A stretch of DNA of 32,000 nt, from assembly GCF_004365815.1 (NCBI RefSeq), contig NZ_SODD01000008.1, positions 1-32,000 of the forward strand, in the 5' to 3' direction. A program made the position numbers and the translations under genes. A model generated the notes under the pieces. That model did not search any database. It was not told the origin of the DNA and worked only from the letters and a program-made list of their open reading frames with translations. How positions within the stretch are numbered: position 1 is the first letter of the stretch; every line of letters starts with the position of its first letter. Shown in pieces: positions 3,363 through 26,836 of this stretch. Source of the DNA: Breznakia blatticola. GTDB taxonomy: Bacteria; Bacillota_I; Bacilli_A; Erysipelotrichales; Erysipelotrichaceae.

Positions 3363-3933
3363 AAGAATCCTCCTTAAAGTATACTGCGTCCACCACATCT
3401 AAATATTTCAAACGTGGTGTATATGATTCATCAATTAAATATCCATGGGTTTGCACCTTTTTATAGGATATGGATTTATGTTGCTTTTCTTCATTGATGA
3501 TATATTCTGCATCAAGTAGATATGTCTCATTATACGCAATAAATCGTATAACTAGAAATGCAATTCCACCATGTTGCTTTACCGCACGTAAATGTGCGAT
3601 CTGGTGTTCATGAATATTGCGGAAGGCAAAAGAAGTTTTACTTGTAGTTTCTTTTGCTTCAAAGTCAATATACGTTGATCGATAAATCCCATTGTAATCA
3701 GTTGTACTTGGTGTTTTATAATAGGCTTCCACGATTTTTGCAGCGGTTCGTTTTGGATAGTCTACACGTACGATTTGTACAGGTGTCGGTTTCTTATAAA
3801 TTAGAGCACGACCTGTTTCTTTATAGAACGTATTCGAATCATTTAAATCTTTTTCCAAATTCATTCCTCTTTGATTACTTGTTGAGGAAATACTTTGAAC
3901 TGCTGGTTTTTTCTTTGTTGGATAGTTTATCAT
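3352..3933 (-). CDS. recU: Holliday junction resolvase RecU, 193 aa
   Basis: RecU-type core (YIDFEAKETTSKTSFAFRNIHEHQIAHL). AGGTGA Shine-Dalgarno before the ATG at 3933. The 3' end overlaps the ponA start by 11 nt, giving the conserved recU-ponA operon. Confidence 0.93.
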   Translation of the reverse strand: MINYPTKKKPAVQSISSTSNQRGMNLEKDLNDSNTFYKETGRALIYKKPTPVQIVRVDYPKRTAAKIVEAYYKTPSTTDYNGIYRSTYIDFEAKETTSKTSFAFRNIHEHQIAHLRAVKQHGGIAFLVIRFIAYNETYLLDAEYIINEEKQHKSISYKKVQTHGYLIDESYTPRLKYLDVVDAVYFKEDSYGK

Positions 3934-4044
3934 AATTTCACCTATTCTATATTATACACGAAAAATGCAAGGACAGTTATTAAAAAATGAGTGCACACAC
4001 TTGCTTTTTAATGTATAATTTGCGAAACTGAAGTAGGTGATATT

Positions 4045-4356
4045 ATGGAAAGATACAATTTGACGATTAAAGACATACTAGACAAGCAATTTCATGTGGA
4101 TATGAAAGGGTATGCAACTGGTGAAGTAGATAGTTTTTTAGATAAAATTATTGAAGATTACGAAGCATATGGTGCCTTTATTGAAGAACTTGGGCAACAT
4201 TTACATCGTTATGAAGATGAAAATAAAAAACTACAAGCGAAAATCAAAGAGCTTGAAGCACAATTAAATTATGAATGTGATAAACAAAACCAAGTAGATT
4301 ATGTGGATTTGTTGAAGCGAATTTCAAATTTAGAAGCAGAAGTATTTAAAAGATAA
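4045..4356 (+). CDS. gpsB: Cell-cycle/divisome protein GpsB (DivIVA-domain protein), 103 aa
   Basis: N-terminal DivIVA domain (LTIKDILDKQFHVDMKGYATGEVDSFLDKIIEDYE) followed by a coiled coil. AGGTGA SD. Divergent from recU and directly upstream of rnpB, as in B. subtilis. Confidence 0.9.
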   Translation: MERYNLTIKDILDKQFHVDMKGYATGEVDSFLDKIIEDYEAYGAFIEELGQHLHRYEDENKKLQAKIKELEAQLNYECDKQNQVDYVDLLKRISNLEAEVFKR

Positions 4357-4692
4357 CGCAGGGTAATCGCTGCTTGCAAAAGTAGAGGAAAGTCCATGCT
4401 CGCACAATCTGTGATGATTGTAGTGTTTGTGCTAGATAAAAAAATAAATCTAGGTAGCGAAAGCTAACGGCTGACAAAATCCTAAGGGCAACTATGGATG
4501 GCGTCTTTAAAAGTGCCACAGTGACGATGCTTTATGGAAACGTAAAGACTGGAACGGGTAAACCCCACAAGCGAGAAACCCAAATATTGGTAGGGGAACT
4601 CTAGCGAACGAACCGAAGTTCAATAGGGACACGTAAGTGTAGATAAATGGTTACCACTCTTCGGAGTACAGAACATGGCTTATATGCGTTAT
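4353..4692 (+). ncRNA. rnpB: RNase P RNA (bacterial, Firmicute/type-B-like)
   Basis: Conserved blocks match B. subtilis rnpB: GGGTAATCGCTGC, GAGGAAAGTCCATGCTCGCAC, AAAGTGCCACAGTGACGA, GGTAAACCCC, AAGCGAGAAACCCAAAT, TTGGTAGGGGAAC and ACAGAACATGGCTTA. The P1 helix is ATAACGCA (4353-4360) paired with TGCGTTAT (4685-4692). Ends are approximate, within about 5 nt. Confidence 0.9.
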
Positions 4693-9289: not shown

Positions 9290-10840
9290 ATGGATGTAAC
9301 TACAATCCTCTTGTCTGGTGTTATCGGTTTAATTATTGGAATTGCTATTATGGCAATCGCTGGTAAAATGGGGCTTACAAAAAGTGAGCAACAAGCCAAA
9401 TTGACAATACAAGAAGCTGAGTCAAAAGCGGAATCAACAATCAAACAAGCTGTGCTTGAGGGGAAAACGCAGGCTCATGAATTGAAACTTAATGCAGAAA
9501 AAGAAATTAAAGCTCAAGAATCTAAATTATTAGAAAAAGAAAACAGTTTAATTCGTAAAGAAGACAGTCTCAATTTTAGGGATGAGGCTTTAGTGAGCAA
9601 AGAAGTACAATTAGAAAAGAAAAATACGCAATTAAGTGAGAGAATGTCAGCATTAGACAAGAAAGAAGCAGAATTAGAAAAACAAATCGACTCACAAGTC
9701 GAAGAGTTAGAGAGAATTGCAGCAATGACAAGTCAACAAGCAAAAGATGAGTTATTCTCAATTATTGAAAAACGTATGGATAATGAAGTATTATCTTACA
9801 TTAAAGAACGTGAGGATGAAGCAAAGAGTACAGCTGATGAAAAAGCTCGTAATATAATCGCATTGTCGGTACAACGTTTATCGCAAGAAGAAGCAGCTGA
9901 CCGTATGGTAAGCGTAGTAAACCTACCTTCTGAGGAAATGAAGGGACGTATTATCGGGCGTGAAGGACGTAATATTAAAGCAATTGAACAAGCTACAGGA
10001 GTAGATTTAAATATTGATGATACACCTGAAGTAATTACACTTTCTTGTTTTGATCCAATTCGTCGTGAAGTTGCTAGACAAGCACTTGAAAGTTTAATTA
10101 AAGATGGACGTATTCAACCAGGACGTATTGAAGAAGTCGTACGCAAAGTACGTAAAGACATGGATCAAAGTATTCTTAAAGCAGGAGAAGATGCAATTTT
10201 CCGTTTAGGAATTGGAAAAATGGACAAAGATATGATTCGTCTTATCGGAAAACTGAAATATCGTTATTCATACGGACAAAATGCATTACAACATTCAATG
10301 GAAGTTGCTGAACTTACAGGAATGATGGCTGCTGAACTTGGATTAAATCAAGTTCTTGCAAAACGTGCAGGTTTGTTACATGATTTAGGAAAAGCAATCG
10401 ACTATGAAGTAGATGGTTCACATGTAGAACTTGGATATAAGTTTGCTAAAAAACATGGAGAAGATGAAGTTGTATTAAATGCAATTCAATCACACCATGG
10501 AGATGCAGAGCCAAAATACTTAATTAGTAACCTTGTATATGCTGCAGATACATTAAGTGCAGCACGTCCAGGGGCACGTAAAGAACAAATGCAAAACTAC
10601 ATCAAACGCTTGGAAGACTTAGAACGTATTTCAAAATCATTTGATGGTGTAGAAAGTACGTATGCAATTCAAGCAGGACGTGAAATTCGTGTATTTGTGG
10701 CTCCAGATCAAATTGATGATTTGAAAGCTGTAAAATTAGCACGTGAATTAAAAGATAAGATTGAAGCTGAACTTACATATCCAGGACAAATTAAAGTTAC
10801 TGTTATCCGCGAAACAAGAGCTAACGAAATCGCAAAATAA
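9290..10840 (+). CDS. rny: Ribonuclease Y, 516 aa
   Basis: ORF call trimmed to the ATG at 9290 (GAGGAG SD). N-terminal TM, long coiled coil, KH domain (GRIIGREGRNIKAIEQATGVDL) and HD domain (LLHDLGKA...QSHHGD). Confidence 0.95.
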   Translation: MDVTTILLSGVIGLIIGIAIMAIAGKMGLTKSEQQAKLTIQEAESKAESTIKQAVLEGKTQAHELKLNAEKEIKAQESKLLEKENSLIRKEDSLNFRDEALVSKEVQLEKKNTQLSERMSALDKKEAELEKQIDSQVEELERIAAMTSQQAKDELFSIIEKRMDNEVLSYIKEREDEAKSTADEKARNIIALSVQRLSQEEAADRMVSVVNLPSEEMKGRIIGREGRNIKAIEQATGVDLNIDDTPEVITLSCFDPIRREVARQALESLIKDGRIQPGRIEEVVRKVRKDMDQSILKAGEDAIFRLGIGKMDKDMIRLIGKLKYRYSYGQNALQHSMEVAELTGMMAAELGLNQVLAKRAGLLHDLGKAIDYEVDGSHVELGYKFAKKHGEDEVVLNAIQSHHGDAEPKYLISNLVYAADTLSAARPGARKEQMQNYIKRLEDLERISKSFDGVESTYAIQAGREIRVFVAPDQIDDLKAVKLARELKDKIEAELTYPGQIKVTVIRETRANEIAK

Positions 10841-17039: not shown

Positions 17040-17067
17040 TTGAAATATGGGAATTGTGTGGTATAGT
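17040..17067 (+). promoter_or_regulatory. Candidate promoter of the PTS operon
   Basis: TTGAAA (17040-17045), 16-nt spacer, TGgTATAGT (17059-17067, extended -10). Confidence 0.55.
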
Positions 17068-17081
17068 AAGAGTGTAAAGAG

Positions 17082-17093
17082 TGGTATATACCA
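17082..17093. promoter_or_regulatory. Perfect 12-bp palindrome TGGTATATACCA, candidate GntR/HutC operator
   Basis: Self-complementary and contains the GTnTAnAC core typical of HutC-subfamily operators. It lies between the -10 box and the IIB SD. A half-site copy, GTGGTATA, overlaps the -10 box 23 bp upstream. Confidence 0.5.
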
Positions 17094-17109
17094 AGAAAGG
17101 GGAACGAAA

Positions 17110-17412
17110 ATGACAAATATTTTGCTAGTCTGTACAGCAGGAATGTCAACAAGTGCTCTTGTAAAGAAAATGCAAGAAGCAGCAACTGAAATGGGTGTGG
17201 AAACAAACATCTGGGCAGTTGGAGATGCTGACAGTGAAGATGCAATTAAGCAAGCTGATGTAATTTGCTTAGGACCTCAAGTTCGTTATTTAGAAGCAAA
17301 AATGAAAGAACGCGTAAATAACGAAAAACCAGTAATGGTTATCGACATGGCAGCTTATGGAACAATGAATGGTAAAAAAGTTCTTGAAAGCGCTTTAGCT
17401 TTAGTTAAGTAG
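17110..17412 (+). CDS. PTS Lac/Cel-family EIIB component, 100 aa
   Basis: ORF call trimmed to the ATG at 17110 (AAGGGGA SD). Active-site context ILLVCTAGMSTSALV with the phospho-Cys. Confidence 0.92.
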   Translation: MTNILLVCTAGMSTSALVKKMQEAATEMGVETNIWAVGDADSEDAIKQADVICLGPQVRYLEAKMKERVNNEKPVMVIDMAAYGTMNGKKVLESALALVK

Positions 17413-17493
17413 TTTTATTAGGGTGAGTAAATCGGTAGGAAAAGTGAAGATCGATTTATTACATAGTATTGATTCATTTAAAAGGAGAGGAAC

Positions 17494-18906
17494 ATGAAAG
17501 GTTTTACAAACTGGATGGAGCAACATTTTGTTCCAGTCGCAGCGAAAATTGGTTCGCAAAAACACTTAGTTGCAATTCGTGATGCGTTTATCGCAATTAT
17601 GCCAATCACAATGGCAGGAGCATTTGCAACATTACTAAACGTATTCTTTAGAGATTTACCAAACGAATGGTGGGGAGCAGGAAACAGTTTCGTTTCAAAC
17701 TCATTCGTATCTGGAATTATTGGAGTTAACGGTAACGTTTGGTGGGGTACATTAGCAATCTTATCAATGGTATTCGTATTTGCTCTTGGTTACCAACTTG
17801 CAAAAGTTTACAAAGTTCCAGCATTAGCTGGTGGGGTAGTTGCTTTTGCAGCATTCATTACAGTTACACCACAATCTGCATTTGCAGCAATTGACTTAGG
17901 GGAAACAGTTTTAGGTGCTGATGCACTAGAAATTTTCAAAACAGCTGGATTAACACTTGGTACAGCAGATGCTGGAGGAACTGTTATTTCTGGAATTGGA
18001 GCTTGGGGAAATCTTAACTGGTCGTACCTAAACGCTGGTGGATTATTTACAGCATTAATCGTTGGGTTAGTAACTGGAGTTATTTACTGTAAATTAATGT
18101 TAGCTAAAATTACAATTAAATTACCAGATTCAGTACCACCTGCAGTATCGAAAGCATTCGCATCAATTATTCCTGGAGTAATCGCAATTTACATTGCTGG
18201 TATCGCTGCTTACTTAGTAAACTTATGGACTGGTTCTTCAATTGGAGATCTTATCTTCGAAAACGTACAAGCACCATTCTTAGCGTTATCTCAAGGATTT
18301 GGAGCAGTAATCATCGTAGTTATCGCAGTACAATTATTCTGGTTCTTTGGAATCCACGGAACAAACGTACTTGCACCAGTATTAGATGGTGTATACTTAA
18401 CAGCTACTACTGAAAACAACGTTGCACACACTGCTGGAAAAGCAATGGAATACATGTGGACTCGTGGATCATTTGATGCATACGTTTGGATGGGTGGAGC
18501 TGGATGTTCAATTGCCTTAATTATCGCAATCTTCATCTTCTCAAAACGTCAAGAATCAAAAACAATTGCAGCACTATCTGCACCAATGGGATTTTTCAAC
18601 ATTAACGAACCAATCGTATTTGGTATGCCAATCGTGCTTAACCCAATTTACTTCATCCCTTGGATGTTAGTACCAATTGTACTTACAATCATTGCATATG
18701 CAGCTACAGCAGCTCAAATTGTTCCACCTGTATATGTACCAGTACCTTGGATTATGCCTCCAGTAGTTTATGCAATTCTTGCAACTGGTGGTAATATATT
18801 AGCGGGTGTATTAGCACTTGTTAACCTTGTAATAGGAGTTGTTATTTGGGGAATCTTCGTTCTTATCGGTAACAAAGTTGATTTAGCTGATACAGAAGCT
18901 GAATAG
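17494..18906 (+). CDS. PTS Lac/Cel-family EIIC permease, 470 aa
   Basis: N-terminus FVPVAAKIGSQKHLVAIRDAFIAIMPITMAGAF is characteristic of cellobiose/lichenan-type IIC. Polytopic membrane protein with a GGAGAGG SD. Confidence 0.93.
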   Translation: MKGFTNWMEQHFVPVAAKIGSQKHLVAIRDAFIAIMPITMAGAFATLLNVFFRDLPNEWWGAGNSFVSNSFVSGIIGVNGNVWWGTLAILSMVFVFALGYQLAKVYKVPALAGGVVAFAAFITVTPQSAFAAIDLGETVLGADALEIFKTAGLTLGTADAGGTVISGIGAWGNLNWSYLNAGGLFTALIVGLVTGVIYCKLMLAKITIKLPDSVPPAVSKAFASIIPGVIAIYIAGIAAYLVNLWTGSSIGDLIFENVQAPFLALSQGFGAVIIVVIAVQLFWFFGIHGTNVLAPVLDGVYLTATTENNVAHTAGKAMEYMWTRGSFDAYVWMGGAGCSIALIIAIFIFSKRQESKTIAALSAPMGFFNINEPIVFGMPIVLNPIYFIPWMLVPIVLTIIAYAATAAQIVPPVYVPVPWIMPPVVYAILATGGNILAGVLALVNLVIGVVIWGIFVLIGNKVDLADTEAE

Positions 18907-18919
18907 GACTTAACATTTT

Positions 18920-18946
18920 AAGGAGGATATTCAATCCTCCTTTTGC
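18920..18946 (+). terminator. Terminator-like hairpin between EIIC and EIIA
   Basis: AAGGAGGAT (18920-18928), loop ATTCA, ATCCTCCTT (18934-18942), followed by a short T-run (TTTT). Possibly a partial terminator or an RNA-stability element. Confidence 0.45.
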
Positions 18947-18967
18947 ACTAATTATAGGAGGTTAGTT

Positions 18968-19279
18968 ATGGAAGGATTAGAATTAGTATGTTTTCAAATC
19001 ATTTCAAATGTTGGGGGAGCTAGAAGTTGCTTTATTGAAGCAATCCAACATGCGAAAGCTGGGGAATATGAAAAAGCACAAGAATCGATCACTGAAGGAG
19101 AGAAATTCTTCACAGAAGGACATCACGCACACGCAAAATTGATTCAACAAGAAGCTAATGGAGAATTGGAAAAAGTAACATTATTGTTACTTCATGCAGA
19201 GGATCAATTAATGAGTGCTGAAGCATTCAAGATTTTAGCAAACGAGTTTATTGACGTATACAAAAGATTAGATAAGTAG
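18968..19279 (+). CDS. PTS Lac/Cel-family EIIA component, 103 aa
   Basis: Three-helix-bundle EIIA pattern: IISNVGGARSCFIEAIQHAKAGEYEKAQ ... HHAHAKLIQQEA ... LLLLHAEDQLMSAE. Confidence 0.92.
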   Translation: MEGLELVCFQIISNVGGARSCFIEAIQHAKAGEYEKAQESITEGEKFFTEGHHAHAKLIQQEANGELEKVTLLLLHAEDQLMSAEAFKILANEFIDVYKRLDK

Positions 19280-19292
19280 TAAGGAGTAAAAG

Positions 19293-19508
19293 ATGATTAA
19301 AATTTCGTGTCCGATGAAACAAGACTTTATTATTGAAATTGTTGAAGGAATTGATAAATACAAATATACTTTTGAAAAAAAAGAAGGTATTAACTTATTT
19401 TTTGCAGTAGATGCACAAGATATGGAAGATGCAATCGCTACAGCGAAAGCAGCAATTAAAGCAACAGAGATTGGTTCCGTTTTATACTTTTCAGTTTCGG
19501 TTGCATAG
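19293..19508 (+). CDS. Hypothetical small cytoplasmic protein, 71 aa
   Basis: AAGGAG SD and tight operon packing after EIIA. I could not assign a confident family from the sequence alone. Confidence 0.6.
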   Translation: MIKISCPMKQDFIIEIVEGIDKYKYTFEKKEGINLFFAVDAQDMEDAIATAKAAIKATEIGSVLYFSVSVA

Positions 19509-19537
19509 TATATAATAATAGAAGTTAGGTGGTAAAC

Positions 19538-19696
19538 ATGAAGAAAGAAAATGCATTAGTACTTTTAGGATTAGGTTGTTTGTTAATTTGCTTTTATCCG
19601 CTGATGGGAAATAGTATACCAATGTTAGTTAGTGGTGTTGTCATCGCAGGGTATGGTGCCTTTCAATTGTTTAAAAACAGAAAGAAGGATAAATAA
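19538..19696 (+). CDS. Hypothetical 52-aa two-TM micro-protein (MKKENALVLLGLGCLLICFYPLMGNSIPMLVSGVVIAGYGAFQLFKNRKKDK)
   Basis: AGGTGG SD 7 nt upstream. TAATG overlap with the next gene. Two hydrophobic helices and a basic C-terminus. Below the ORF-track size cutoff. Confidence 0.5.
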   Translation: MKKENALVLLGLGCLLICFYPLMGNSIPMLVSGVVIAGYGAFQLFKNRKKDK

Positions 19697-20142
19697 TGGA
19701 AGCAACTAGATTGATGCGCGGTAAAAAGGAAACGTGTTATAAACTTTTTATGGAGTCGATATTAGCAGATATCAATGCAAACAGCGAAGATGGTAAGCAA
19801 TATACAGAAAGTGATTTACATTCTGGATTTACTTATTACAAGCAATTAAAAACAAAGATGGGACAAGAAGGACGTGTTAAGGTAGAATTGACTGAACTTG
19901 TACCAAATGAAGTATATGTTGCAAAATTCTTTAGTGCGCAAGGTGTTAATACGGTATCGTATCATCTTGAAGATGAAGATGAAGATCTTTTTGCTCTTAC
20001 TTATGAAGAAGATTTTATTTCTGATAAAACAAGCAAAAACTTGAATTTTAGTTTAATGAATAAATTATTCTCTCGTTCAAGTAAAAAAAAGATGGATCTT
20101 ATGTTTAACCAACTTCAAACATTACTAGATAGTAAAGAATAG
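19696..20142 (+). CDS. DUF3284-like protein, 148 aa
   Basis: Size, the N-terminal CYKLFMESILADI pattern and the position inside a Lac/Cel PTS operon next to DUF871 fit my recollection of DUF3284. This is not a searched hit. Confidence 0.65.
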   Translation: MEATRLMRGKKETCYKLFMESILADINANSEDGKQYTESDLHSGFTYYKQLKTKMGQEGRVKVELTELVPNEVYVAKFFSAQGVNTVSYHLEDEDEDLFALTYEEDFISDKTSKNLNFSLMNKLFSRSSKKKMDLMFNQLQTLLDSKE

Positions 20143-20165
20143 TGGTTAACACTATTCTTTTTTTA
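20134..20165 (+). terminator. Intra-operon intrinsic terminator between the DUF3284-like and DUF871 genes
   Basis: 11-bp stem AAAGAATAGTG/CACTATTCTTT spanning the stop codon, loop GTTAA, then a T-run. Confidence 0.7.
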
Positions 20166-20184
20166 AAAGAAAGGGAAGAAAAAG

Positions 20185-21273
20185 ATGGCTCGATTAGGAA
20201 TATCTGTATATCCAGAACATGCACCTTTAGAAAAAAATAAAGCGTATATTAAAGATGCTGCTGAATGTGGATTTACAAGAATCTTCACTTGTCTATTAAG
20301 TGTTGAAGGAAGAACAAAACAAGAAATATTAGAAGAATTTAGAGAAATGATCGATTATGCACATACATTCAACATGGAAGTAATTTTAGATGTTGCACCA
20401 TTTGTGTTTGAAAAGTTAGGTGCAAGTTATGATGATCTATCATTTTTTAAAGAAATGCATGCTGATGGAATTCGTTTAGATGAAGGATTTGGTGGGCAAA
20501 AAGAAAGCCTTATGACGTACAATAAAGAAGGCTTAAAAATCGAAATTAATGCAAGTTTTGGAAATGGATATATTGATAATATTATTTCTCATTATCCAGA
20601 CAAAGATAAAATGATTACTTGTCACAATTTTTATCCACAAAGATACACAGGTTTAAGTGAAAAACATTTCAATTTATGCAATAATATGATTAAGAAACAC
20701 GGCTTAAAAATTGCAGCCTTCGTTTCTAGTCAAGCAAAGGGAACGTTTGGGCCTTGGCCAGTGAACGAAGGATTGTGTACACTTGAATCACATCGTGATT
20801 TACCAATTGATGTGCAAATGCGTCACTTGGTAGCGACAGGTATGATTGATGATGTAATTATCGGAAACCAATTTGCTACACGTGAAGAATTAGAAACTTG
20901 TGCGAAAATTCAACCAGGTTTATTGACGTTTAAAATTGATTACGAAAAAGAATTGCATCCAACAGAACGCAAAGTAATTTTTGAACATGAACATTATGTT
21001 CGTGGAGATATGAGTGAGTACATGGCACGTTCGACGTTTCCACGTGTAACGTATGCAAGTGAAAGTGTACCACCAGAAAACACAAGGGACTTACGTCGTG
21101 GGGATGTAATCGTTGTTAATGATAACTACTCACGTTACAAAGGTGAGTTACACATCGTATTAAAAGATATGCCAAATGATGGGCGCAAGAATGTTATCGG
21201 ACGAATTCCTGATAATGAAATGATGTTACTTGATTACATCGAACCTTGGAGACCATTCGGTTTTATGGAATAG
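20185..21273 (+). CDS. DUF871 / MupG-like 6-phospho-sugar hydrolase (6-phospho-N-acetylmuramidase family), 362 aa
   Basis: N-terminus LGISVYPEH followed by a TIM-barrel-like region and a C-terminal beta domain, as in DUF871 proteins. Encoded with a PTS and a GntR regulator. Confidence 0.8.
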   Translation: MARLGISVYPEHAPLEKNKAYIKDAAECGFTRIFTCLLSVEGRTKQEILEEFREMIDYAHTFNMEVILDVAPFVFEKLGASYDDLSFFKEMHADGIRLDEGFGGQKESLMTYNKEGLKIEINASFGNGYIDNIISHYPDKDKMITCHNFYPQRYTGLSEKHFNLCNNMIKKHGLKIAAFVSSQAKGTFGPWPVNEGLCTLESHRDLPIDVQMRHLVATGMIDDVIIGNQFATREELETCAKIQPGLLTFKIDYEKELHPTERKVIFEHEHYVRGDMSEYMARSTFPRVTYASESVPPENTRDLRRGDVIVVNDNYSRYKGELHIVLKDMPNDGRKNVIGRIPDNEMMLLDYIEPWRPFGFME

Positions 21274-21300
21274 CATTTTTGCTTGAAGGGGGGAGAACGC

Positions 21301-21969
21301 ATGGATGTTCCTGTTTATAAGAAAATCCAACAGGAAATGCTGGAAATGATAAAAGATTTACCACCCAATTCACCAATTCCAAGTGAGCGTGATCTCACGA
21401 AACGTTTTGATGCAAGTCGAATGACGGTGCGCAAAGCAGTTTCGGCATTGGTTGATGAGGGGTATCTATATCGTGACAGTAATCGGGGAACGTTTGTTGC
21501 TGATAGCACCCTTCATAAAAAGAATACATTGATTAACACAGAAGATATAGATAGTCTTACATATAAGATGATTTATTTCGATGTGAAAGCGAGTTCAGGT
21601 GATGATGTACAAGCAGCTTTACGAATAAGTGATGATGAACCAGTGGTTCGAATGATTCGCTTAGTAAGTAAAAATGAAGTGCCACAATGTATTGAAGAAA
21701 TATATATTCGTCGCTTAAATTTAAGTGATGAAGAATTAAGAAATCTTCCAAATTGGAAAGATTTCAATCGCTTGTATAGTGAAGGAAGTTTAACTTCACG
21801 TTTTAAGCCGGTGATGGTACCACCACAATATGCACATATGTTAGCGGTTCGCGTAAACGAACCAATCATCCTTGTCGAAAACATTGTGAATCGTATTAGT
21901 GGGGAACCAGTCATCTTTATGAAGGTGTACAACAACCCAGCAGAAAAAGTCATTGAAATCGTAACATAG
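21301..21969 (+). CDS. GntR/HutC-family transcriptional regulator (wHTH + UTRA domain), 222 aa
   Basis: ORF call trimmed to the ATG at 21301 (GGGGGGAG SD). PLYKQI-like opening VPVYKKIQQEM. PSERDLTKRFDASRMTVRKAVSALVDEGYLYRDSNRGTFV. UTRA-sized C-terminal domain. Confidence 0.9.
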   Translation: MDVPVYKKIQQEMLEMIKDLPPNSPIPSERDLTKRFDASRMTVRKAVSALVDEGYLYRDSNRGTFVADSTLHKKNTLINTEDIDSLTYKMIYFDVKASSGDDVQAALRISDDEPVVRMIRLVSKNEVPQCIEEIYIRRLNLSDEELRNLPNWKDFNRLYSEGSLTSRFKPVMVPPQYAHMLAVRVNEPIILVENIVNRISGEPVIFMKVYNNPAEKVIEIVT

Positions 21970-22057: not shown

Positions 22058-22231
22058 ATGAAATATTTACATATCATATATCAAGTAAGTAGTTGGCTAG
22101 CCATTGGATTGGGATTACTTGTAACATTTAAAATTCTTCCACTTGATTTTACAAGTGTGATTTTCTTTTTCACATTTATTATGTTTGTTTCTTTGATATT
22201 GATGCGAAAACAAGATCATCATGATTCGTAA
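22058..22231 (+). CDS. Hypothetical 57-aa two-TM micro-protein (MKYLHIIYQVSSWLAIGLGLLVTFKILPLDFTSVIFFFTFIMFVSLILMRKQDHHDS)
   Basis: GAAAGGAG SD 7 nt upstream of the ATG. The 3' end overlaps the ABC exporter start by 11 nt, and that start has no SD of its own, which implies coupling. Below the ORF-track cutoff. Confidence 0.55.
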   Translation: MKYLHIIYQVSSWLAIGLGLLVTFKILPLDFTSVIFFFTFIMFVSLILMRKQDHHDS

Positions 22232-24377
22232 AAAGAAGTATGCATGTGTATTGCAGCGCGATGACTATGATTGTGGTGTTGCAGCATTAGCAAGTGTATT
22301 GCAACATTATGGATATACCTATAGTTATGAAGCATTACGTGAACAGTTAGGCGTTCAACTTCAAGGAACAAGAGTTCATGATTTGGTAGATGTTTTGCAC
22401 TCTTATGGATTTTTAGCACAAGCAGTTCGTACGAGTGTATCAGATTTACATAATGATATGATCTATCCTATTATTTTACAGGTTAGTAATTCACAAGGGC
22501 AGTGGCATTATATCTTACTTTATAAAATCACAAGAAAAGAAGAATACATTATTGCAGATCCAATTGCTGGTGTAAAAAAGATATCCAAGGAAGAATTGGA
22601 AACTATCTTTGGTGGGATTGTCATTGTATTAGTAAAAGAACATGATGTAAAACTAGCAAGTGTGAAAAGTCAGTCAATGTTTGGTTTGTTTGCGAATTTG
22701 ATGTTGCCATATAAGAAACTAATTTTACAAGTTATCTTTATGTCCATCTTTTTGACTGTGTTTGGCATTGTATCATCTCTTTGCTCAAAGATTGTGATGG
22801 ATGAATTAATTCCCTACAACAAAGGACAATTGCTAGTTGTGTATTTGGTATTCTTCTCGTTTGTCTTGTTGCTACAAAATACATTATCAGCAGCAAGAGA
22901 ACATGTCTTACTTTTCTTTTCAAGAAAGATTGATATTCCTTTATTACTTGGTTATTTCAAGCACGTTCTGTATCTATCATTTAGTTATTTTAAAAATCGC
23001 AAAGTGGGGGATATCCTAACGCGATTTCAAGATGCAATTACGATAAAGGAAGTGTTTTCAAATGTAGCGATTTCCTTATTGATGGATTGTGTCTTGGCGA
23101 TTTGTTCTTCAGTGATTTTATTTACGATGAATCGCACGTTATTTTCTATTTTGTTTGTGATTGTATTATTGAATATTGTCTTAATCTATGTCTTTAAGAA
23201 ACCATATAAGGCGATTAATATGAAGCAAATGGAAGCTAATTCGCAAATGAATGCAACATTAATTGAAACCTTGCAAAATATGGATACAGTGAAAGCGCAA
23301 AACAATGAAAAGCAACGTTTACTTGCAATAGAAAAAGCTTTTATTAAAACACTGACCATTAACTATAAAGAAGGAAAATTATCTATTCTACAATCTTTTT
23401 TATCCAATAGTATAAATGGACTAGCAAACTATATTTTTCTAGGTGTAGGTGCATACTACATCATGCAACAGAAAATGAGTATTGGTGATTTGTTGGTGTT
23501 TCAAACACTATCACAATATTTTATGGAACCGATACAAAGTTTAGTTTCCTTGCAGCTACGGTTTCAAGAAGTTGGAATTTCCATTGATCGGCTTCGAGAG
23601 TTAATGGAACTTGATAGTGAGGAAATGCAAGATGTAGCAATTACACAGTTTACATTAGATGCACCAATTGTATTTCATGATGTAAGTTTTGCATATGGAA
23701 AACAAGATTACCTATTTAAACAATTACGCTTTACGATTCAGCCTGGTCAAGTTATTGGGCTTGTTGGTGAAAGTGGTGGTGGGAAGACTTCACTTGTTCG
23801 TTTATTACTTCGCTATTATGAAGTAGAACATGGATCAATTACTATTGGTGATTATGATATTAAAGATTTGTGTATGCATGAATTGCGAAAGAAAATTGCA
23901 TATGTACCACAAGAAGTACAGTTATTCTCTGGGACATTATTAGATAATTTGAAACTTGCTAAACCAGATGCATCATATGAAGAGATTGTTCGAGTATGTA
24001 AACAAGTAGGAATACACGAATGGATTGATGGATTGGAAAAGCGGTATTTAAGTATGATACAAGAAGGTTCAAGTAATATTTCCGGAGGACAAAAACAACG
24101 AATTGGAATTGCTCGAGCCTTGCTTAAACAACCAGATATTTTTATCTTTGATGAAGTAACGAGTAATTTGGATAGTAAAAGTGAAGCGATGATTACAGAT
24201 ATTATATTTAATCAACTTGAAGGTTACACAAGAATACTCATTGCACATCGTCTATCTACAATTCGGTCGTGTGATGTAATTCATGTACTCAACCAGGGAA
24301 AAATATTGGAAAGTGGAAGTCATGAGGAATTATATACACGAAAAGGCTTATATTATCGTATGTTAGAAAAAACATAA
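22221..24377 (+). CDS. Peptidase-C39-domain ABC exporter (bacteriocin/peptide cleavage-export type, ComA/LagD/LcnC-like), 718 aa
   Basis: N-terminal C39 domain with Q12, catalytic C18 (QRDDYDCGVAAL), His (GQWHYILLYK) and Asp (IIADP). Six-TM ABC membrane domain. Walker A GESGGGKTS, signature ISGGQKQRIGIARAL, Walker B IFIFDE, H-loop IAHRL. Confidence 0.95.
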   Translation: MIRKKKYACVLQRDDYDCGVAALASVLQHYGYTYSYEALREQLGVQLQGTRVHDLVDVLHSYGFLAQAVRTSVSDLHNDMIYPIILQVSNSQGQWHYILLYKITRKEEYIIADPIAGVKKISKEELETIFGGIVIVLVKEHDVKLASVKSQSMFGLFANLMLPYKKLILQVIFMSIFLTVFGIVSSLCSKIVMDELIPYNKGQLLVVYLVFFSFVLLLQNTLSAAREHVLLFFSRKIDIPLLLGYFKHVLYLSFSYFKNRKVGDILTRFQDAITIKEVFSNVAISLLMDCVLAICSSVILFTMNRTLFSILFVIVLLNIVLIYVFKKPYKAINMKQMEANSQMNATLIETLQNMDTVKAQNNEKQRLLAIEKAFIKTLTINYKEGKLSILQSFLSNSINGLANYIFLGVGAYYIMQQKMSIGDLLVFQTLSQYFMEPIQSLVSLQLRFQEVGISIDRLRELMELDSEEMQDVAITQFTLDAPIVFHDVSFAYGKQDYLFKQLRFTIQPGQVIGLVGESGGGKTSLVRLLLRYYEVEHGSITIGDYDIKDLCMHELRKKIAYVPQEVQLFSGTLLDNLKLAKPDASYEEIVRVCKQVGIHEWIDGLEKRYLSMIQEGSSNISGGQKQRIGIARALLKQPDIFIFDEVTSNLDSKSEAMITDIIFNQLEGYTRILIAHRLSTIRSCDVIHVLNQGKILESGSHEELYTRKGLYYRMLEKT

Positions 24378-24388
24378 GAAAGGAATTT

Positions 24389-24871
24389 ATGAAACATATA
24401 AAAATTAGTGAACATGCATCATTACAATTACAACAATTAATTACTGAACCGATTCATCAAATACAAGTGTATGAATTTGAACGATATCTGCAACAATTCA
24501 TCAATCGTATCCAACTTCAACAAGTCGATGTTCATGGTCCATTAATTCATAAATTGTGTGGAAGTACATTTACAGATGAAGGTGATTTATTGTTGGATTA
24601 TACGTTGATGATGCAAACAAACACTATACATGAATCATTTTCAACCATTCAGCAAATCACGCTTGAAGATTGCTTGTGTGTAGAATTTTGCGACCATCCA
24701 AGATTTTTTGATTTATCACATCAAAAGTTAAGTGTGTATTTGTATGAACATGAATATGCTAGCACTGGAGAACTATATACATTGTTTTATGAGAATAGTG
24801 AAGAACGAATTCATGCAGTGATGTATGTTCCTTTAGAAGGAATAACACATGAAACTATACAACGTACATGA
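24389..24871 (+). CDS. Hypothetical cytoplasmic His/Cys/Gln-rich protein, 160 aa (GyrI/SbmC-like fold suspected)
   Basis: GAAAGGA SD. Sits between the exporter and the adaptor, and overlaps the adaptor gene by 23 nt. No signal peptide or TM. The predicted pattern looks like a duplicated beta-alpha-beta-beta module. CxCx3CxH cluster (C95, C97, C101, H103). Confidence 0.7.
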   Translation: MKHIKISEHASLQLQQLITEPIHQIQVYEFERYLQQFINRIQLQQVDVHGPLIHKLCGSTFTDEGDLLLDYTLMMQTNTIHESFSTIQQITLEDCLCVEFCDHPRFFDLSHQKLSVYLYEHEYASTGELYTLFYENSEERIHAVMYVPLEGITHETIQRT

Positions 24872-26060
24872 TTTGAAGTTTACACGCTTTTTCTTTGATC
24901 GCAAACCGCCAAAGTATATATGGATTACTTTGCTTGTGACTGTATTGTTTACGAGTCTTATTGCTTGGGGTTCATGTTTTCTTTTGAAACCCTATGTTGT
25001 CTATGGACAAGGCAATATCGTCGCAAAAGATAGTCATTATGTAACTAGTAATGTACAAGGTGCTGTTATCTCAATAGAAACAAGTGAAGGTGAATATGTA
25101 GAAAATGGCGATATCTTATTTGTTGTTAGTGATGGGAAAAATGGTAGTGAAGTAGAAGCTTTACTCGAGCAATACAATCAAGCAAAAGAAAAACTATCCA
25201 TTATGGATTTATATGAAAGTTCATTGCGTGAGAAGGTAAATCATTTACAAAATCATGGATTGCAACAAGAATACTATGGAAAAGTCGAATACTATTTACT
25301 ACAAGTAAAAGAAGAACAAATCTCACGAAAACGAGTAGAAGAAAGTTTATATCAAAAAAATCAAAAGCTTTCCCAAGAGCAAAAAACTCTTGCAAGCATC
25401 AGTGATCCTATGGAAAAGGAGGGAAAGCAAAGTAGTGTAGAAGCTTTGCAAGACGAAGTAAAACAGCTGCAGCAAGAACTACAAAACATTCCACAAAGTG
25501 ATAAACTATTTTATCAATTCATCAGTGAGTTAGGTACACAAAGAACTCAAGTAGAAACCCAAAAACAAGAGTTAGAGGGAAATCATTTACTAGCATCAAC
25601 AAATGAATCAACCTATGTGATTCGTGCAACTAGTGAAGGATATGTACACTATTTAAATCCTATGTACGAAGGAGTAAGCATTCAAGCAAATGGAGTAGTA
25701 GCAAGTATTAGTAAAGATGAACCAAATCGTTGGGTAGTGGAAACGTATGTCGATGCAAATGATATAGCAAAGATTAAACTTGGTGATCCAGTGTTCATAC
25801 AACTACATGGTTTGAATGAACACCTTTATCCAAATATACCAGGAATGGTAGTGAGTATTGATCAAGGCACGTTGCAACAAGAGACAAGTAATGGACAAGT
25901 TCTTGTATATCGGATGATTGTTATGATGGACTATGCAAAGGTCAAAGACACAAAGAGTTTTAAACAATTAAAAAAATCGATGCCAGTAACCTGTAAAATT
26001 GTTTATGAAGAAGAAAGCTATTTAGACTATGTATTATCCTTACTCAACTTTACATCATAG
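24849..26060 (+). CDS. HlyD-family secretion adaptor / bacteriocin export accessory protein (ComB/LcnD-like), 403 aa
   Basis: N-terminal TM (YIWITLLVTVLFTSLIAWGSCFLL). Lipoyl-like segment (GAVISIETSEGEYVENGDILFVV). Long Q/E/K coiled coil and a C-terminal beta-barrel region (GDPVFIQLHG...). Confidence 0.85.
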   Translation: MKLYNVHDLKFTRFFFDRKPPKYIWITLLVTVLFTSLIAWGSCFLLKPYVVYGQGNIVAKDSHYVTSNVQGAVISIETSEGEYVENGDILFVVSDGKNGSEVEALLEQYNQAKEKLSIMDLYESSLREKVNHLQNHGLQQEYYGKVEYYLLQVKEEQISRKRVEESLYQKNQKLSQEQKTLASISDPMEKEGKQSSVEALQDEVKQLQQELQNIPQSDKLFYQFISELGTQRTQVETQKQELEGNHLLASTNESTYVIRATSEGYVHYLNPMYEGVSIQANGVVASISKDEPNRWVVETYVDANDIAKIKLGDPVFIQLHGLNEHLYPNIPGMVVSIDQGTLQQETSNGQVLVYRMIVMMDYAKVKDTKSFKQLKKSMPVTCKIVYEEESYLDYVLSLLNFTS

Positions 26061-26065
26061 AATTG

Positions 26066-26090
26066 AAAGAATCTTAGGATTCTTTTTTTT
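26066..26090 (+). terminator. Intrinsic terminator after the exporter/adaptor operon
   Basis: AAAGAATC/GATTCTTT stem, loop TTAG, followed by a T8 tract. Confidence 0.8.
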
Positions 26091-26135
26091 CGAGGTGAAT
26101 ATAATGATGAGCACCTTGCTTAGAAAGGAGGAACT

Positions 26136-26471
26136 ATGGAACTTGTATTACCAAAACACTATGTTGCAGTAGATAACAAATTGGAACATTTTGCACAAGG
26201 GTATTGGACGCATACTGGACATGCGCAGTGGACGTACACAATAACAAAGACCGATTGTAAAAATATCTCTTGGTGGTTGAGTGTTGGCTCAACGGTCTCA
26301 AGTGCGATTGCATATTTTTGTGCGGCTGCTGCACCGTATGCTAGTGCAATATCAACTGTGCTAGGTGGAGCTGCAAAAGTATTTAAATCAGGTGCGAACG
26401 GAAATGGAATTCGTGTGTATTTCCACACAATGGCTTGGGGAAGAACCCCTCGATGGGCAAGTTATCTATAA
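26136..26471 (+). CDS. Hypothetical Trp/Ala/Gly-rich 111-aa protein with a central hydrophobic hairpin and a cationic tail (candidate exporter cargo or membrane-active protein)
   Basis: Strong AAGGAGG SD 6 nt upstream of the ATG. Bracketed by two good terminators, so probably monocistronic. Internal VLGG at residues 75-78 (GG codons at 26364-26369). No family recognised. Confidence 0.7.
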   Translation: MELVLPKHYVAVDNKLEHFAQGYWTHTGHAQWTYTITKTDCKNISWWLSVGSTVSSAIAYFCAAAAPYASAISTVLGGAAKVFKSGANGNGIRVYFHTMAWGRTPRWASYL

Positions 26472-26475
26472 GCCG

Positions 26476-26505
26476 GAAACCAGAGAAATCTGGTTTTTCT
26501 TATTT
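26476..26505 (+). terminator. Intrinsic terminator after the 111-aa ORF
   Basis: AAACCAGA/TCTGGTTT stem, loop GAAA, followed by TTTTTCTTATTT. Confidence 0.7.
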
Positions 26506-26541: not shown

Positions 26542-26570
26542 TTGACACAATGAAACATACGTCATATAAT
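26542..26570 (+). promoter_or_regulatory. Consensus sigma-A promoter of the his operon
   Basis: TTGACA (26542-26547), exactly 17 nt spacer, TATAAT (26565-26570). Confidence 0.75.
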
Positions 26571-26576
26571 AATTCT

Positions 26577-26836
26577 AACAATAAACGATGATAAGAAATA
26601 GTAACGTATCTAAAAAGCGTAGAGACTTCTTGGTTGGTGAAAAAGAAGATTGGCAGATTCGTGAACACGTCTTGGAGTTATGAAGGTGAAATAAGTAGTC
26701 TTCATCGGTGTCCCTGCAACCGTTATCTTGCTAGAGTATGATAGTACTCGAAGAGGTTGGTGCTGTGAAGTATCAATAAAAAAAGGTGGAACCACGTAAG
26801 TTAAACTTTCGTCCTTTGGATGGAAGTTTTTTTTGT
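26577..26836 (+). promoter_or_regulatory. T-box riboswitch leader, His specifier (CAC)
   Basis: GA/K-turn CGATGA. Specifier loop AAATAGTA ... GAA-CAC-G (CAC at 26666-26668) closed by ACGTATC/GATTCGT. AGAGA and GGTGAAA distal motifs. F-box CCGTTA (26720-26725). T-box AAAGGTGGAACCACG (26783-26796). Terminator AACTTTCGTCC/GGATGGAAGTT followed by T8 (26804-26836). Confidence 0.85.

Follow-up and report, generated by a model that had tools for sequence, protein, structure and literature searches.

The rtg locus of pneumococcus encodes the RtgAB transporter, secretion by which is directed by positions -22 to -18 of the signal sequence, including Pro-18, and which is less dependent on the hydrophobic residues at -15, -12, -7 and -4 than other peptidase-containing ABC transporters (PCATs) (Wang et al. 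2020, mBio, PMC7018657). The locus also includes rtgX, listed as a 'GyrI-like hypothetical protein', and an rtgAXB construct was used as the unit in that study (PMC7018657). With regard to the function of the cargos, the authors go no further than to 'speculate that they are bacteriocins', and rtg peptides persist in many pneumococci that lack a functional RtgAB (PMC7018657); our literature search found no newer functional work on these peptides. In published structures a very narrow peptidase cleft accounts for Gly-Gly specificity, and PCAT substrates in genomes have been found almost entirely through leaders ending in GG, GA or GS.

We have examined the first 32,000 nucleotides of a Breznakia blatticola contig (NZ_SODD01000008.1; hereafter the window), in which a C39-ABC transporter gene and an HlyD-like gene are directly followed by the gene for a 111-residue protein. 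The features of the locus are as follows.

22058..22231, forward strand: 57-aa small hydrophobic protein, seemingly with two membrane spans, overlapping the start of the ABC gene
22221..24377, forward strand: RtgA-like PCAT, 718 aa (Pfam and PCAT1 alignment)
24389..24871, forward strand: RtgX-like GyrI-fold protein, 160 aa, between the ABC and HlyD-like genes (AF2 and Foldseek)
24849..26060, forward strand: RtgB-like HlyD/AprE-type accessory protein, 403 aa (Pfam and TIGRFAM)
26065..26094, forward strand: hairpin followed by U8, 3' of the HlyD-like gene, a GC-poor weak terminator or attenuator
26100..26105, forward strand: TATAAT hexamer, a possible -10 of the cargo gene without a good -35 (read from the sequence)
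26124..26131, forward strand: Shine-Dalgarno sequence AAAGGAGG, 4 nt 5' of the ATG
26136..26471, forward strand: cargo ORF, 111 aa, ATG start
26136..26201, forward strand: residues 1–22, degenerate rtg-type leader MELVLPKHYVAVDNKLEHFAQG (homology to rtg signal sequences)
26202..26471, forward strand: residues 23–111 and stop codon, conserved core and predicted mature protein (alignments, AF2 and dN/dS)
26364..26369, forward strand: codons of G77-G78, proposed as a cleavage site in an earlier note on this DNA and judged here to be no processing site
26468..26505, forward strand: intrinsic terminator of the cargo gene (terminator scan and fold energy)

The ORF, its Shine-Dalgarno sequence and the two flanking hairpins, all described in the earlier note, are present in the sequence. 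The downstream hairpin (26468–26503) folds at -13 kcal/mol (z = -3.8), and none of 200 shuffles folds equally well; the upstream hairpin (26065–26086) folds at -11.5 kcal/mol (z = -2.4 against shuffles) with the U8 next to it, and is missing from the terminator scan because its stem is GC-poor. We note that this U8 hairpin stands between the cargo gene and the exporter genes, which counts against the explanation of the locus developed below. Both the upstream hairpin (26065–26094) and the GAAAGGAGGAAC of the Shine-Dalgarno sequence are kept in the orthologous locus of Erysipelotrichaceae bacterium MTC7, which reads TATAAG at the position equivalent to 26100–26105; the TATAAT in the window, which was not reported by the promoter scan, is a possible candidate for a -10 element. 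Intact cargo ORFs are found in five distinct orthologues (the window protein, P0003, and those of Breznakia pachnodae, Breznakia sp. PF5-3 and MTC7), and the window protein is 99% identical to a protein of an unclassified Breznakia. The core has a dN/dS of 0.019 relative to the MTC7 orthologue and of 0.18 relative to that of B. pachnodae, and on these comparisons we take the 111-residue protein to be the product of a real, constrained gene.

Comparison of the N-termini shows that the window protein, which begins MELVLPKHYV, carries a variant of a published double-glycine signal type, a feature that the earlier note overlooked. The leader of its canonical relatives, MELVLPxNYVEIEQEEMMYLDGG, matches nine pneumococcal rtg signal sequences (Fig. 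S3B, PMC7018657), for example that of RtgC, MELVLPNNYVDLEQEEMMYLDGG (PMC7018657). Residues 1–6 of the window protein (MELVLP) are identical to those of RtgC, E, K, M, T, V and W, and the leader retains the ELVLP motif that occupies -22 to -18 in the rtg signals (with Pro at -18) as well as the final Gly; because it is one residue shorter, its Pro lies at -17 when counted from Gly22. The departure is at the other end, where there is a Gln at -2 and the sequence reads FAQG followed by YW rather than ending in GG, GA or GS. The leaders of the other four orthologues end in YGQG, VGEG, VGEG and VGKG, such that all five conform to [G/A]-[Q/E/K]-G with Gly22 invariant, and GG, GA and GS are absent from this junction throughout the Breznakia clade. 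Two close relatives with a homologous core, P0004 and P0011, read EEMQYIDGG and EEMMYLDGG respectively, each followed at once by YWTHVGHAEW, and thus have a canonical 23–25-residue GG leader directly ahead of an invariant YWTH that corresponds to the G22/Y23 junction in the window. Since these end in DGG and the window leader in Q-G, the window protein is best regarded as a homologue by descent and not as a strict GG peptide.

The two ends of the leader have evolved very differently, with a dN/dS relative to MTC7 of 0.035 for residues 1–9 and a nearly neutral 0.82 for residues 10–21 (12 codons), a segment in which the peptidase-docking function could have been lost. The leader is probably unstructured, as AF2 assigns it low confidence (mean pLDDT of 52, 46 and 59 in successive 10-residue blocks, and below 50 at residues 1–3 and 15–21). 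Searches of Pfam and NCBIfam with the 111-residue protein returned nothing from the NHLP or Nif11 families, in agreement with the earlier note, which had seen no resemblance to them. No other ORF in the window has an rtg-type leader, and in Helcococcus ovis six cargos at two loci carry the canonical 23-residue leader in front of unrelated cores. Taken at the level of sequence, the export signal is very probably this 22-residue N-terminal rtg-type leader, without a Gly-Gly.

The predicted mature core has 89 residues (9.7 kDa, pI 9.7, six Trp). A core-only profile scores 141–163 bits against P0002, P0003, P0004 and P0011, of which P0004 and P0011 account for 141–145 bits. The AF2 model of the whole protein, which has a moderate pLDDT of 73.7 and is based on a 14-sequence alignment, has strands at 23–27 and 31–36, helices at 38–61 and 66–88, and strands at 92–99 and 102–110; the highest Kyte-Doolittle hydropathy over 19 residues is 1.49, which falls short of the level customary for transmembrane segments. 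The HMM and structure searches that had been suggested for this protein yielded neither a curated family nor a structural match: sequence and profile searches of Pfam, NCBIfam and the PDB gave no usable family for the protein or its relatives, and the best Foldseek match of the model to the PDB and BFVD has E = 0.17, with coiled-coil and helical-hairpin proteins (FemX, EsxA) among the matches. The window protein does not match PF10439 (Bacteriocin_IIc) at E ≤ 1, and P0004 scores 18.8 bits against a threshold of 27.1. All relatives retrieved for the core come from a small number of Erysipelotrichaceae genomes and from metagenomic contigs. Several candidate similarities were discarded. An N-terminal hairpin of the garvicin Q/lactococcin A kind is insignificant (NF033837 GarQ_core, 12.9 bits against 33, E = 0.085, residues 20–39 only); the large repeat proteins P0006 (1665 aa) and P0007 (887 aa), from the exhaustive search, match a short beta-hairpin only and were treated as spurious; and the 95-aa P0014, encoded at locus L001, is not significantly similar as a paralogue would be (core-only profile E of about 6e3 at Z = 1e6), sharing with the 111-residue protein no more than the leader and some short motifs.

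The transporter has the ABC membrane and nucleotide-binding domains as well as the catalytic residues of a PCAT (Pfam Peptidase_C39, 2.9e-30; ABC_membrane, 3.4e-39; ABC_tran, 5.2e-30). It scores 499 bits against TIGR01193, under the cutoff of 523.85, and 462 bits against NHLM_micro_ABC1, for which the cutoff is 853; the latter is generic PCAT similarity. Alignment to the PCAT1 and ComA structures puts Gln12, Cys18, His96 and Asp112 at the catalytic positions (E = 5e-20 for PCAT1), with Val and Val at the groove positions equivalent to A55 and I59 of PCAT1, and the peptidase appears competent by motif. Peptidase domains from loci with GG-less and GG-bearing cargos were compared for signs of a widened S2 pocket; they retain their catalytic and groove residues and show no pattern that follows GG loss.

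The 160-aa protein has at least 162 homologues, mostly of 155–160 aa and many of them annotated at NCBI as 'AraC family transcriptional regulator'; the sole sequence-level evidence for its nature is a sub-threshold match to DUF5085 in two of the homologues. Its AF2 model (pLDDT 93.7) has the duplicated beta-alpha-beta-beta arrangement of GyrI, Rob-C and BmrR-C, and Foldseek matches it to GyrI-like CTR107 (2e-6), Rob, CtaZ, STM3175, BmrR and SbmC; all 22 PDB matches at E ≤ 1e-3 are GyrI-like or SOUL-type. The 403-aa protein matches Pfam HlyD_3 (6.6e-13) and, under their cutoffs, TIGR01843 (1.7e-27) and TIGR01000 bacteriocin_acc (2e-13), and its orthologues carry PF26002 (Beta-barrel_AprE). The window thus has an RtgA-like PCAT, an RtgB-like accessory protein and a GyrI-like protein of the RtgX kind, as in the rtg locus. 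Neither Pfam nor NCBIfam has a match for the 57-aa ORF. Its counterparts at the same position are 54–57-aa genes at loci L001 and L004–L006 and a 54-aa ORF at L019, and at L013 a similar 55-aa ORF lies directly 3' of the cargo homologue P0011; the alignment is weak (18–31% identity). On this weak similarity it is a candidate immunity protein. The window has no immunity gene 3' of the cargo and no dedicated regulator near it.

The order C39-ABC, 155–160-aa GyrI-fold protein, HlyD/AprE-like protein and cargo recurs at L001, L004–L006, L011 and L016/L017; L019 has ORFs of corresponding sizes in the same order, and the short contig of L013 retains the end of an HlyD-like gene directly before the cargo. 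Both orthologues and distant relatives of the cargo therefore lie immediately downstream of this cassette in independent contigs, and no other cargo for the exporter was found in the window or at the MTC7 and B. pachnodae loci. The suggestion in the earlier note that the 111-residue protein is a C39 cargo is supported by this linkage and by its being the only leader-bearing ORF in the window, and it is very probably the cargo of the adjacent exporter, as judged from gene content and alignments.

We propose that the window encodes an rtg-type exporter cargo with a degenerate N-terminal leader and a secreted, bacteriocin-like product of 89 residues, an explanation to which, as a whole, we assign a probability of about 0.62. 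The 22 residues of the leader descend from the rtg signal and would be recognised by the transporter chiefly through the N-terminal motif, as for pneumococcal RtgAB. The unfolded chain would then be threaded and the leader cut off at or beside Gly22, freeing a basic, Trp-rich protein predicted to fold as two beta-hairpins on either side of a small-residue helical hairpin. The product is presumably a bacteriocin; it might act on competing bacteria as an unmodified, membrane-active protein, and the 57-aa hydrophobic protein encoded at 22058–22231 might protect the producer. The step at Gly22 is not assured, as the leader ends in Q-G and the cleft is very narrow; loss of the Gly at -2, together with the near-neutral docking segment, means that cleavage would need an altered tolerance of the peptidase or some other handling. 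Also counting against the explanation are the lack of an immunity gene 3' of the cargo and of a regulator near it, the low hydropathy, and the moderate confidence of the AF2 model, to which no structural analogue was matched.

Three other explanations bear on where, or whether, the protein is cleaved and what it does. The earlier note proposed that the C39 domain cuts after G77-G78, making residues 1–78 a long leader, hydrophobic in part, and freeing a cationic peptide of 33 residues that contains Trp. The composition on which this was based is correct: G77-G78 is the sole GG of the protein, with a V at -4 and an I at -7, and the 33-residue tail has five basic and no acidic residues (pI 11.1). 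The tail also includes NGIRVYFHTMxWGRTPRW, the most conserved part of the subfamily and the only segment to which the 57-aa P0010 aligns. However, with nine Gly among 111 residues, shuffled sequences contain 0.65 GG on average and at least one in 50% of cases, and V and I at these spacings are expected within an Ala/Val/Ile-rich helix. The dipeptide reads GF, GY, GL, GV, AL or TV in relatives, and the canonical GG leader of P0004 and P0011 lies at the N-terminus; of the homologue survey that had been suggested, adjacency of the cargo to an exporter cassette was confirmed elsewhere and conservation of the GG was not. The site is also in the middle of the predicted 66–88 helix, in a single predicted domain in which the N- and C-terminal beta-hairpins pair, and the residues on its two sides co-evolve as one strongly constrained unit, residues 23–78 being conserved as strongly as the tail and quite unlike a leader. 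By all of these comparisons the internal GG is a chance feature, and cleavage there, with its 78-residue leader and 33-residue product, is highly improbable.

It is conceivable that there is no cleavage at all, and that the exporter recognises the N-terminal motif of a protein that is either exported with its leader or retained in the producer membrane as a toxin, immunity or regulatory factor; the fallback position of the earlier note, an uncleaved membrane-inserting toxin or immunity factor, would be consistent with the lack of a GG in the window leader. The uniform absence of GG, GA or GS at the junction in the Breznakia clade would fit, as would the narrow cleft, for which a Gly at -2 is held necessary, the near-neutral docking segment, the lesser reliance of RtgAB on the hydrophobic positions and the retention of rtg peptides by pneumococci whose RtgAB does not work. 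However, the invariance of Gly22 and the strong constraint on the N-terminal motif indicate a leader that still functions, the peptidase has kept its catalytic residues and groove, and retention of the exporter is not accounted for by any second cargo at the loci of the window, MTC7 and B. pachnodae; we consider an uncleaved protein unlikely. Alternatively the protein could be exported and processed and yet serve in signalling, adhesion or colonisation with no antimicrobial role. Rtg peptides have no established function, GG peptides have also been tied to biofilm formation, colonisation and signalling, no clear immunity gene adjoins the cargo gene in the window, and the protein matches none of the curated bacteriocin families of Pfam and NCBIfam. 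An 89-residue folded, Trp-rich, basic protein is nevertheless unlike peptide pheromones, neither a receptor kinase nor an Rgg regulator is nearby, small hydrophobic ORFs with seemingly two spans, typical of immunity genes, lie 3' of relatives, and the Helcococcus loci, with many cargos behind one leader, resemble bacteriocin arsenals. A purely non-antimicrobial role seems to us rather improbable, and we favor the secreted, bacteriocin-like protein.

A larger proposition, which we advance tentatively and with some doubt, is that a whole PCAT cargo lineage, the five orthologues, has dropped the Gly-Gly motif under strong purifying selection beside a catalytically intact C39 exporter. If so, then either the peptidase domains of rtg-type exporters can cut leaders that have Gln, Glu or Lys at -2, or export needs no more than the distal N-terminal rtg motif and cleavage is dispensable; either outcome would alter the rule by which PCAT substrates are predicted. 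Having descended from canonical GG peptides and lost the Gly at -2 with core and exporter intact, the locus offers a natural test of the GG rule, and the handling of its GG-less cargo would reveal what share of PCAT recognition resides in an N-terminal motif of the RtgAB type. The comparison also extends the rtg system, previously described in pneumococcus alone, outside the streptococci, points to the GyrI-like RtgX as a widespread and routinely mis-annotated third component, and adds an uncharacterised family of 89-residue cores without a structural analogue to the candidate protein bacteriocins of insect-gut Erysipelotrichaceae. The main correction to the previous reading is that its attractive internal GG is a chance feature.

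Among described systems, the window has most in common with the pneumococcal rtg peptides (RtgC, E, G, K, M, T, V and W), which have the same MELVLPxxYV leader type and a locus with a PCAT, a GyrI-like protein, a ComB/BlpB-like accessory protein and downstream cargo without known function; the likeness is one of leader and gene set. The window differs in its host, an Erysipelotrichaceae, in having a leader of 22 rather than 23 residues with A-Q-G in place of D-G-G and with the acidic EQEEMMYLD segment lost, and in having a single cargo and no Rgg/SHP regulator. The class II double-glycine bacteriocins (Blp pneumocins, lactococcin A and garvicin Q) similarly have a ribosomal unmodified precursor whose N-terminal leader is about 22 residues long, a dedicated transporter of the C39-ABC type with an accessory protein, small membrane proteins as partners, and a product that is basic, contains Trp and is rich in small residues; however, the mature part of the window protein (89 residues) is roughly double the customary length, its predicted structure is a folded alpha/beta domain, and it has neither the GG motif nor a PF10439 match. 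CtA, the cargo of PCAT1 in Clostridium thermocellum, is about 90 residues long, and thus a polypeptide-sized cargo handled by a homologous peptidase domain. Its leader ends in G23-G24, where it is cut by the PCAT1 peptidase domain; unlike the window protein it has a canonical GG and no rtg N-terminal motif, its core has no sequence similarity to that of the window, and PCAT1 works without GyrI-like and HlyD-like partners. The NHLP/Nif11 cargos use the same exporter class, but the leader of the window protein is short and N-terminal rather than roughly 78 residues long.

Both the leader (residues 1-22) of the 111-residue cargo and the exporter cassette upstream of it are homologous to the pneumococcal rtg locus, in which RtgA is a C39-ABC transporter (a peptidase-containing ABC transporter, PCAT), RtgX is GyrI-like and RtgB is HlyD-like (Wang et al. 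2020, PMC7018657). The open reading frame is real and encodes the protein quoted in the earlier note, and the hairpins reported to bracket it are present on both sides, the downstream one being the stronger.

22058-22231, + strand: small, hydrophobic 57-aa ORF, candidate immunity gene
22221-24377, + strand: C39-ABC transporter, 718 aa, upstream of the cargo
24389-24871, + strand: GyrI-like (RtgX-like) protein, 160 aa (AF2 pLDDT 93.7)
24849-26060, + strand: HlyD-like protein, 403 aa, upstream of the cargo
26065-26086, + strand: upstream hairpin (-11.5 kcal/mol, z = -2.4), then eight U
26124-26131, + strand: Shine-Dalgarno AAAGGAGG, 4 nt 5' of the ATG
26136-26471, + strand: cargo ORF, 111 residues
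26364-26369, + strand: sole Gly-Gly of the cargo (residues 77-78), Val at -4, Ile at -7
26468-26503, + strand: downstream hairpin (-13 kcal/mol, z = -3.8)

Upstream (17047-21969) lie genes for PTS IIB/IIC/IIA, a DUF3284 protein, a MupG-like 6-phospho-N-acetylmuramidase and a GntR/UTRA regulator, an order retained in all Breznakia-clade loci. On the 3' side, a perfect sigma-70 consensus promoter (26542-26570; TTGACA, 17 nt, TATAAT), a T-box leader (RF00230, 123 bits, 26579-26819) and then a terminator hairpin (26803-26829) precede hisZ (26833) and the his operon. The constancy of neighbour order in this clade places the exporter cassette at a fixed chromosomal site between the PTS/MupG operon and the his operon.

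A word-indexed search recovered only two relatives of the cargo: P0001, a 'hypothetical protein' of an unclassified Breznakia (99% identical), and P0002, whose N-terminal 22 residues differ considerably, with Gly22 and the following YWTH invariant. About 20 more proteins came from an exhaustive profile search, which covered 1.84 billion representatives, and from a profile word search; none of them is annotated, and none exceeds a Pfam or NCBIfam threshold. In Pfam and NCBIfam searches the cargo falls outside PF10439, the GarQ family and the NHLP/Nif11 families, in agreement with the earlier view that it does not resemble the last of these. Among 185,579 species-representative genomes the core family (YWTH...NGIRVYFHTMxWGRTPRW) occurs in only three, each from Breznakia or a related member of the Erysipelotrichaceae, and it is also present in a few metagenomic contigs. 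Two of the relatives, P0004 and P0011, match the window core unambiguously (141-145 bits with a core-only profile) and begin MGLMLSLPKRYDEIEEEEMQYIDGG/YWTH... and MEMTLRLPNNYVEIEEEEMMYLDGG/YWTH..., respectively; since these homologous cores carry a GG leader directly before YWTH, the family's leader is of the classical double-glycine type, with a cleavage site that corresponds to G22/Y23 of the window protein.

The earlier note had instead proposed C39 cleavage at the internal G77-G78, releasing a 33-residue tail. Its description of the composition stands, with a single Gly-Gly, the Val and Ile at -4 and -7, and a tail of five basic and no acidic residues. A Gly-Gly at 77-78 is, however, unremarkable: the 111 residues include nine glycines, and shuffled copies contain a mean of 0.65 Gly-Gly pairs, with at least one in half of them. 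The position is variously GG, GF, GY, GL, GV, AL or TV across the family (GF in P0002, 54% identical), and in the AF2 model it falls in the middle of the second predicted helix, 66-88. Homologues do sit behind C39 exporter cassettes, as that proposal anticipated, but the internal Gly-Gly is not kept; the proposed site is refuted, and we regard cleavage there as very improbable.

A 23-residue leader, MELVLPxNYVEIEQEEMMYLDGG, heads quite different cores, being found in several metagenomic proteins and, as MELVLPQNYVEIEQEEM[E/M]YLDGG, on six distinct cargos in two Helcococcus ovis loci (L016 and L017). The pneumococcal rtg GG peptides have this leader as their signal sequence: RtgC reads MELVLPNNYVDLEQEEMMYLDGG, RtgG MELILPNNYVDLEQEEMMYLDGG, and seven others are listed with them (Wang et al. 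2020, PMC7018657, Fig. S3B). Secretion through RtgAB is favoured by leader positions -22 to -18, Pro-18 among them, and RtgAB is less reliant than ComAB/BlpAB on hydrophobic residues at -15, -12, -7 and -4; the rtg peptides have no established function, bacteriocins being a possibility (PMC7018657). The H. ovis cargo genes (94-126 aa, five per locus) lie scattered, among many small unannotated ORFs, in the stretch that separates the PCAT gene from the GyrI-like/HlyD-like pair; they suggest an extensive rtg-type arsenal beyond the streptococci.

The order C39-ABC, GyrI-like, HlyD/AprE-like, cargo recurs in Breznakia sp. PF5-3 (L001, L002, L020), a GenBank Breznakia assembly (L004), a metagenomic contig (L011) and both H. 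ovis loci; in B. pachnodae (L019) the ORFs correspond in size and order, and on a short contig (L013) the cargo directly follows the end of the HlyD-like gene. This order and the rtg-type leader uphold the assignment of the cargo to the adjacent exporter. In the pneumococcal gene table rtgX appears as a 'GyrI-like hypothetical protein', and constructs handle rtgAXB as one unit (Wang et al. 2020, PMC7018657). The RtgX-like family numbers at least 162 members, about 155-160 aa long (median near 155), from Streptococcus, Erysipelothrix, Helcococcus, Facklamia and bacilli, often named 'AraC family transcriptional regulator' by NCBI; a length of about 155 aa leaves no room for an AraC DNA-binding domain besides the GyrI-like fold. 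The AF2 model of the 160-aa protein matches CTR107 (2e-6), Rob, CtaZ, STM3175 (albicidin-resistance), BmrR and SbmC, and the closest of these (CTR107, CtaZ, STM3175 and SbmC) act by binding or sequestering toxins or small molecules; the model suggests that, as part of rtg-type exporters, it may serve in the cytoplasm to bind cargo or for self-protection.

The window peptidase aligns to the PCAT1 and ComA structures with Gln12, Cys18, His96 and Asp112 in place and hydrophobic groove positions. Orthologous cargos accompany markedly different peptidase domains (window 22221-22670; L019 3875; L001 5488), with motifs DCGVAAL... and WHYILLYK in the window and Erysipelotrichaceae bacterium MTC7, and DCA.AA... 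and HFVV.H.I in B. pachnodae and PF5-3; this may be ordinary divergence or adaptation to altered leaders. Regulation also differs: pneumococcus has an Rgg/SHP pair and L011 a LytTR response regulator and histidine kinase ahead of its cassette (2474-4419), whereas the window has no dedicated regulator, its GntR gene (21283-21969) being grouped with the PTS/MupG genes next to it. The regulatory module seems to have been swapped between lineages.

The window leader, MELVLPKHYVAVDNKLEHFAQG, retains the rtg N-terminal motif and final Gly, but it is one residue shorter, its position -2 is Gln, and the acidic stretch EQEEMMYLD is gone. Orthologues in MTC7 (YGQG, 85% identity), B. pachnodae (VGEG, 60%), P0003 (VGEG) and PF5-3 (VGKG) also lack the Gly-Gly, so that its loss is a trait of the lineage rather than an error; some 30 other rtg-type leaders in this comparison end in GG, save one with GS. 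Between the window and MTC7, 10 of 22 leader residues and 7 of 89 core residues differ (Fisher p = 1e-4), and Nei-Gojobori dN/dS is 0.019 for the core, 0.035 for leader residues 1-9 and 0.82 for residues 10-21 (only 12 codons, dS saturated). These comparisons place the core under purifying selection, strongly constrained together with the distal motif, while leader residues 10-21 drift. In L001 an extra gene pair (9448-9916) lies between the HlyD-like gene and the 112-aa cargo homologue, encoding a 95-aa cargo (P0014) with an rtg-type leader ending DGS and a 56-aa hydrophobic ORF; a single exporter in PF5-3 would serve one canonical GS-junction cargo and one G-K-G cargo.

We infer that the RtgA-like transporter recognises the cargo mainly via MELVLPxxY, and that the cargo would be exported and its leader removed at or near Gly22. 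In other PCAT substrates the corresponding leader segment docks as a helix on the peptidase, and a very narrow cleft is reported to account for Gly-Gly specificity, so cleavage at a Q-G junction cannot be assumed. As the chief alternative, a leader without GG may have ceased to be cleaved, the cargo being exported uncleaved or retained in the producer; with Gly22 invariant among the orthologues and the distal motif constrained, we consider this unlikely. Under removal at or near Gly22, the 89-residue product might be a membrane-active antagonistic protein, with immunity perhaps given by the small hydrophobic protein, which appears to span the membrane twice; counterparts of the 57-aa ORF, 54 aa long, sit at the equivalent position in PF5-3 and B. 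pachnodae, and one of 55 aa that resembles it lies directly 3' of P0011.

Residues 23-111 would form a 9.7 kDa product of pI 9.7 with six Trp. AF2, from a 14-sequence alignment (pLDDT 73.7 overall, 81-89 across residues 31-90), predicts strands 23-27 and 31-36, Ala/Ser/Gly-rich helices 38-61 and 66-88, and strands 92-99 and 102-110; low confidence suggests that the leader is probably unstructured. The hydropathy maximum, 1.49, is slightly below the usual transmembrane threshold, and the model has no counterpart among solved structures or predicted viral ones. A C41-C62 disulfide could form, although C62 is absent from P0003, P0004 and B. pachnodae.

For PCAT specificity, the loss of Gly-Gly in a constrained cargo lineage is a modest puzzle, though one that can be tested. 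The window system is homologous to the pneumococcal rtg locus and would work alike; its cargo has the N-terminal motif and locus of rtg-type GG peptides but not the Gly-Gly, and we therefore term it a GG-less derivative of these peptides rather than a GG peptide.
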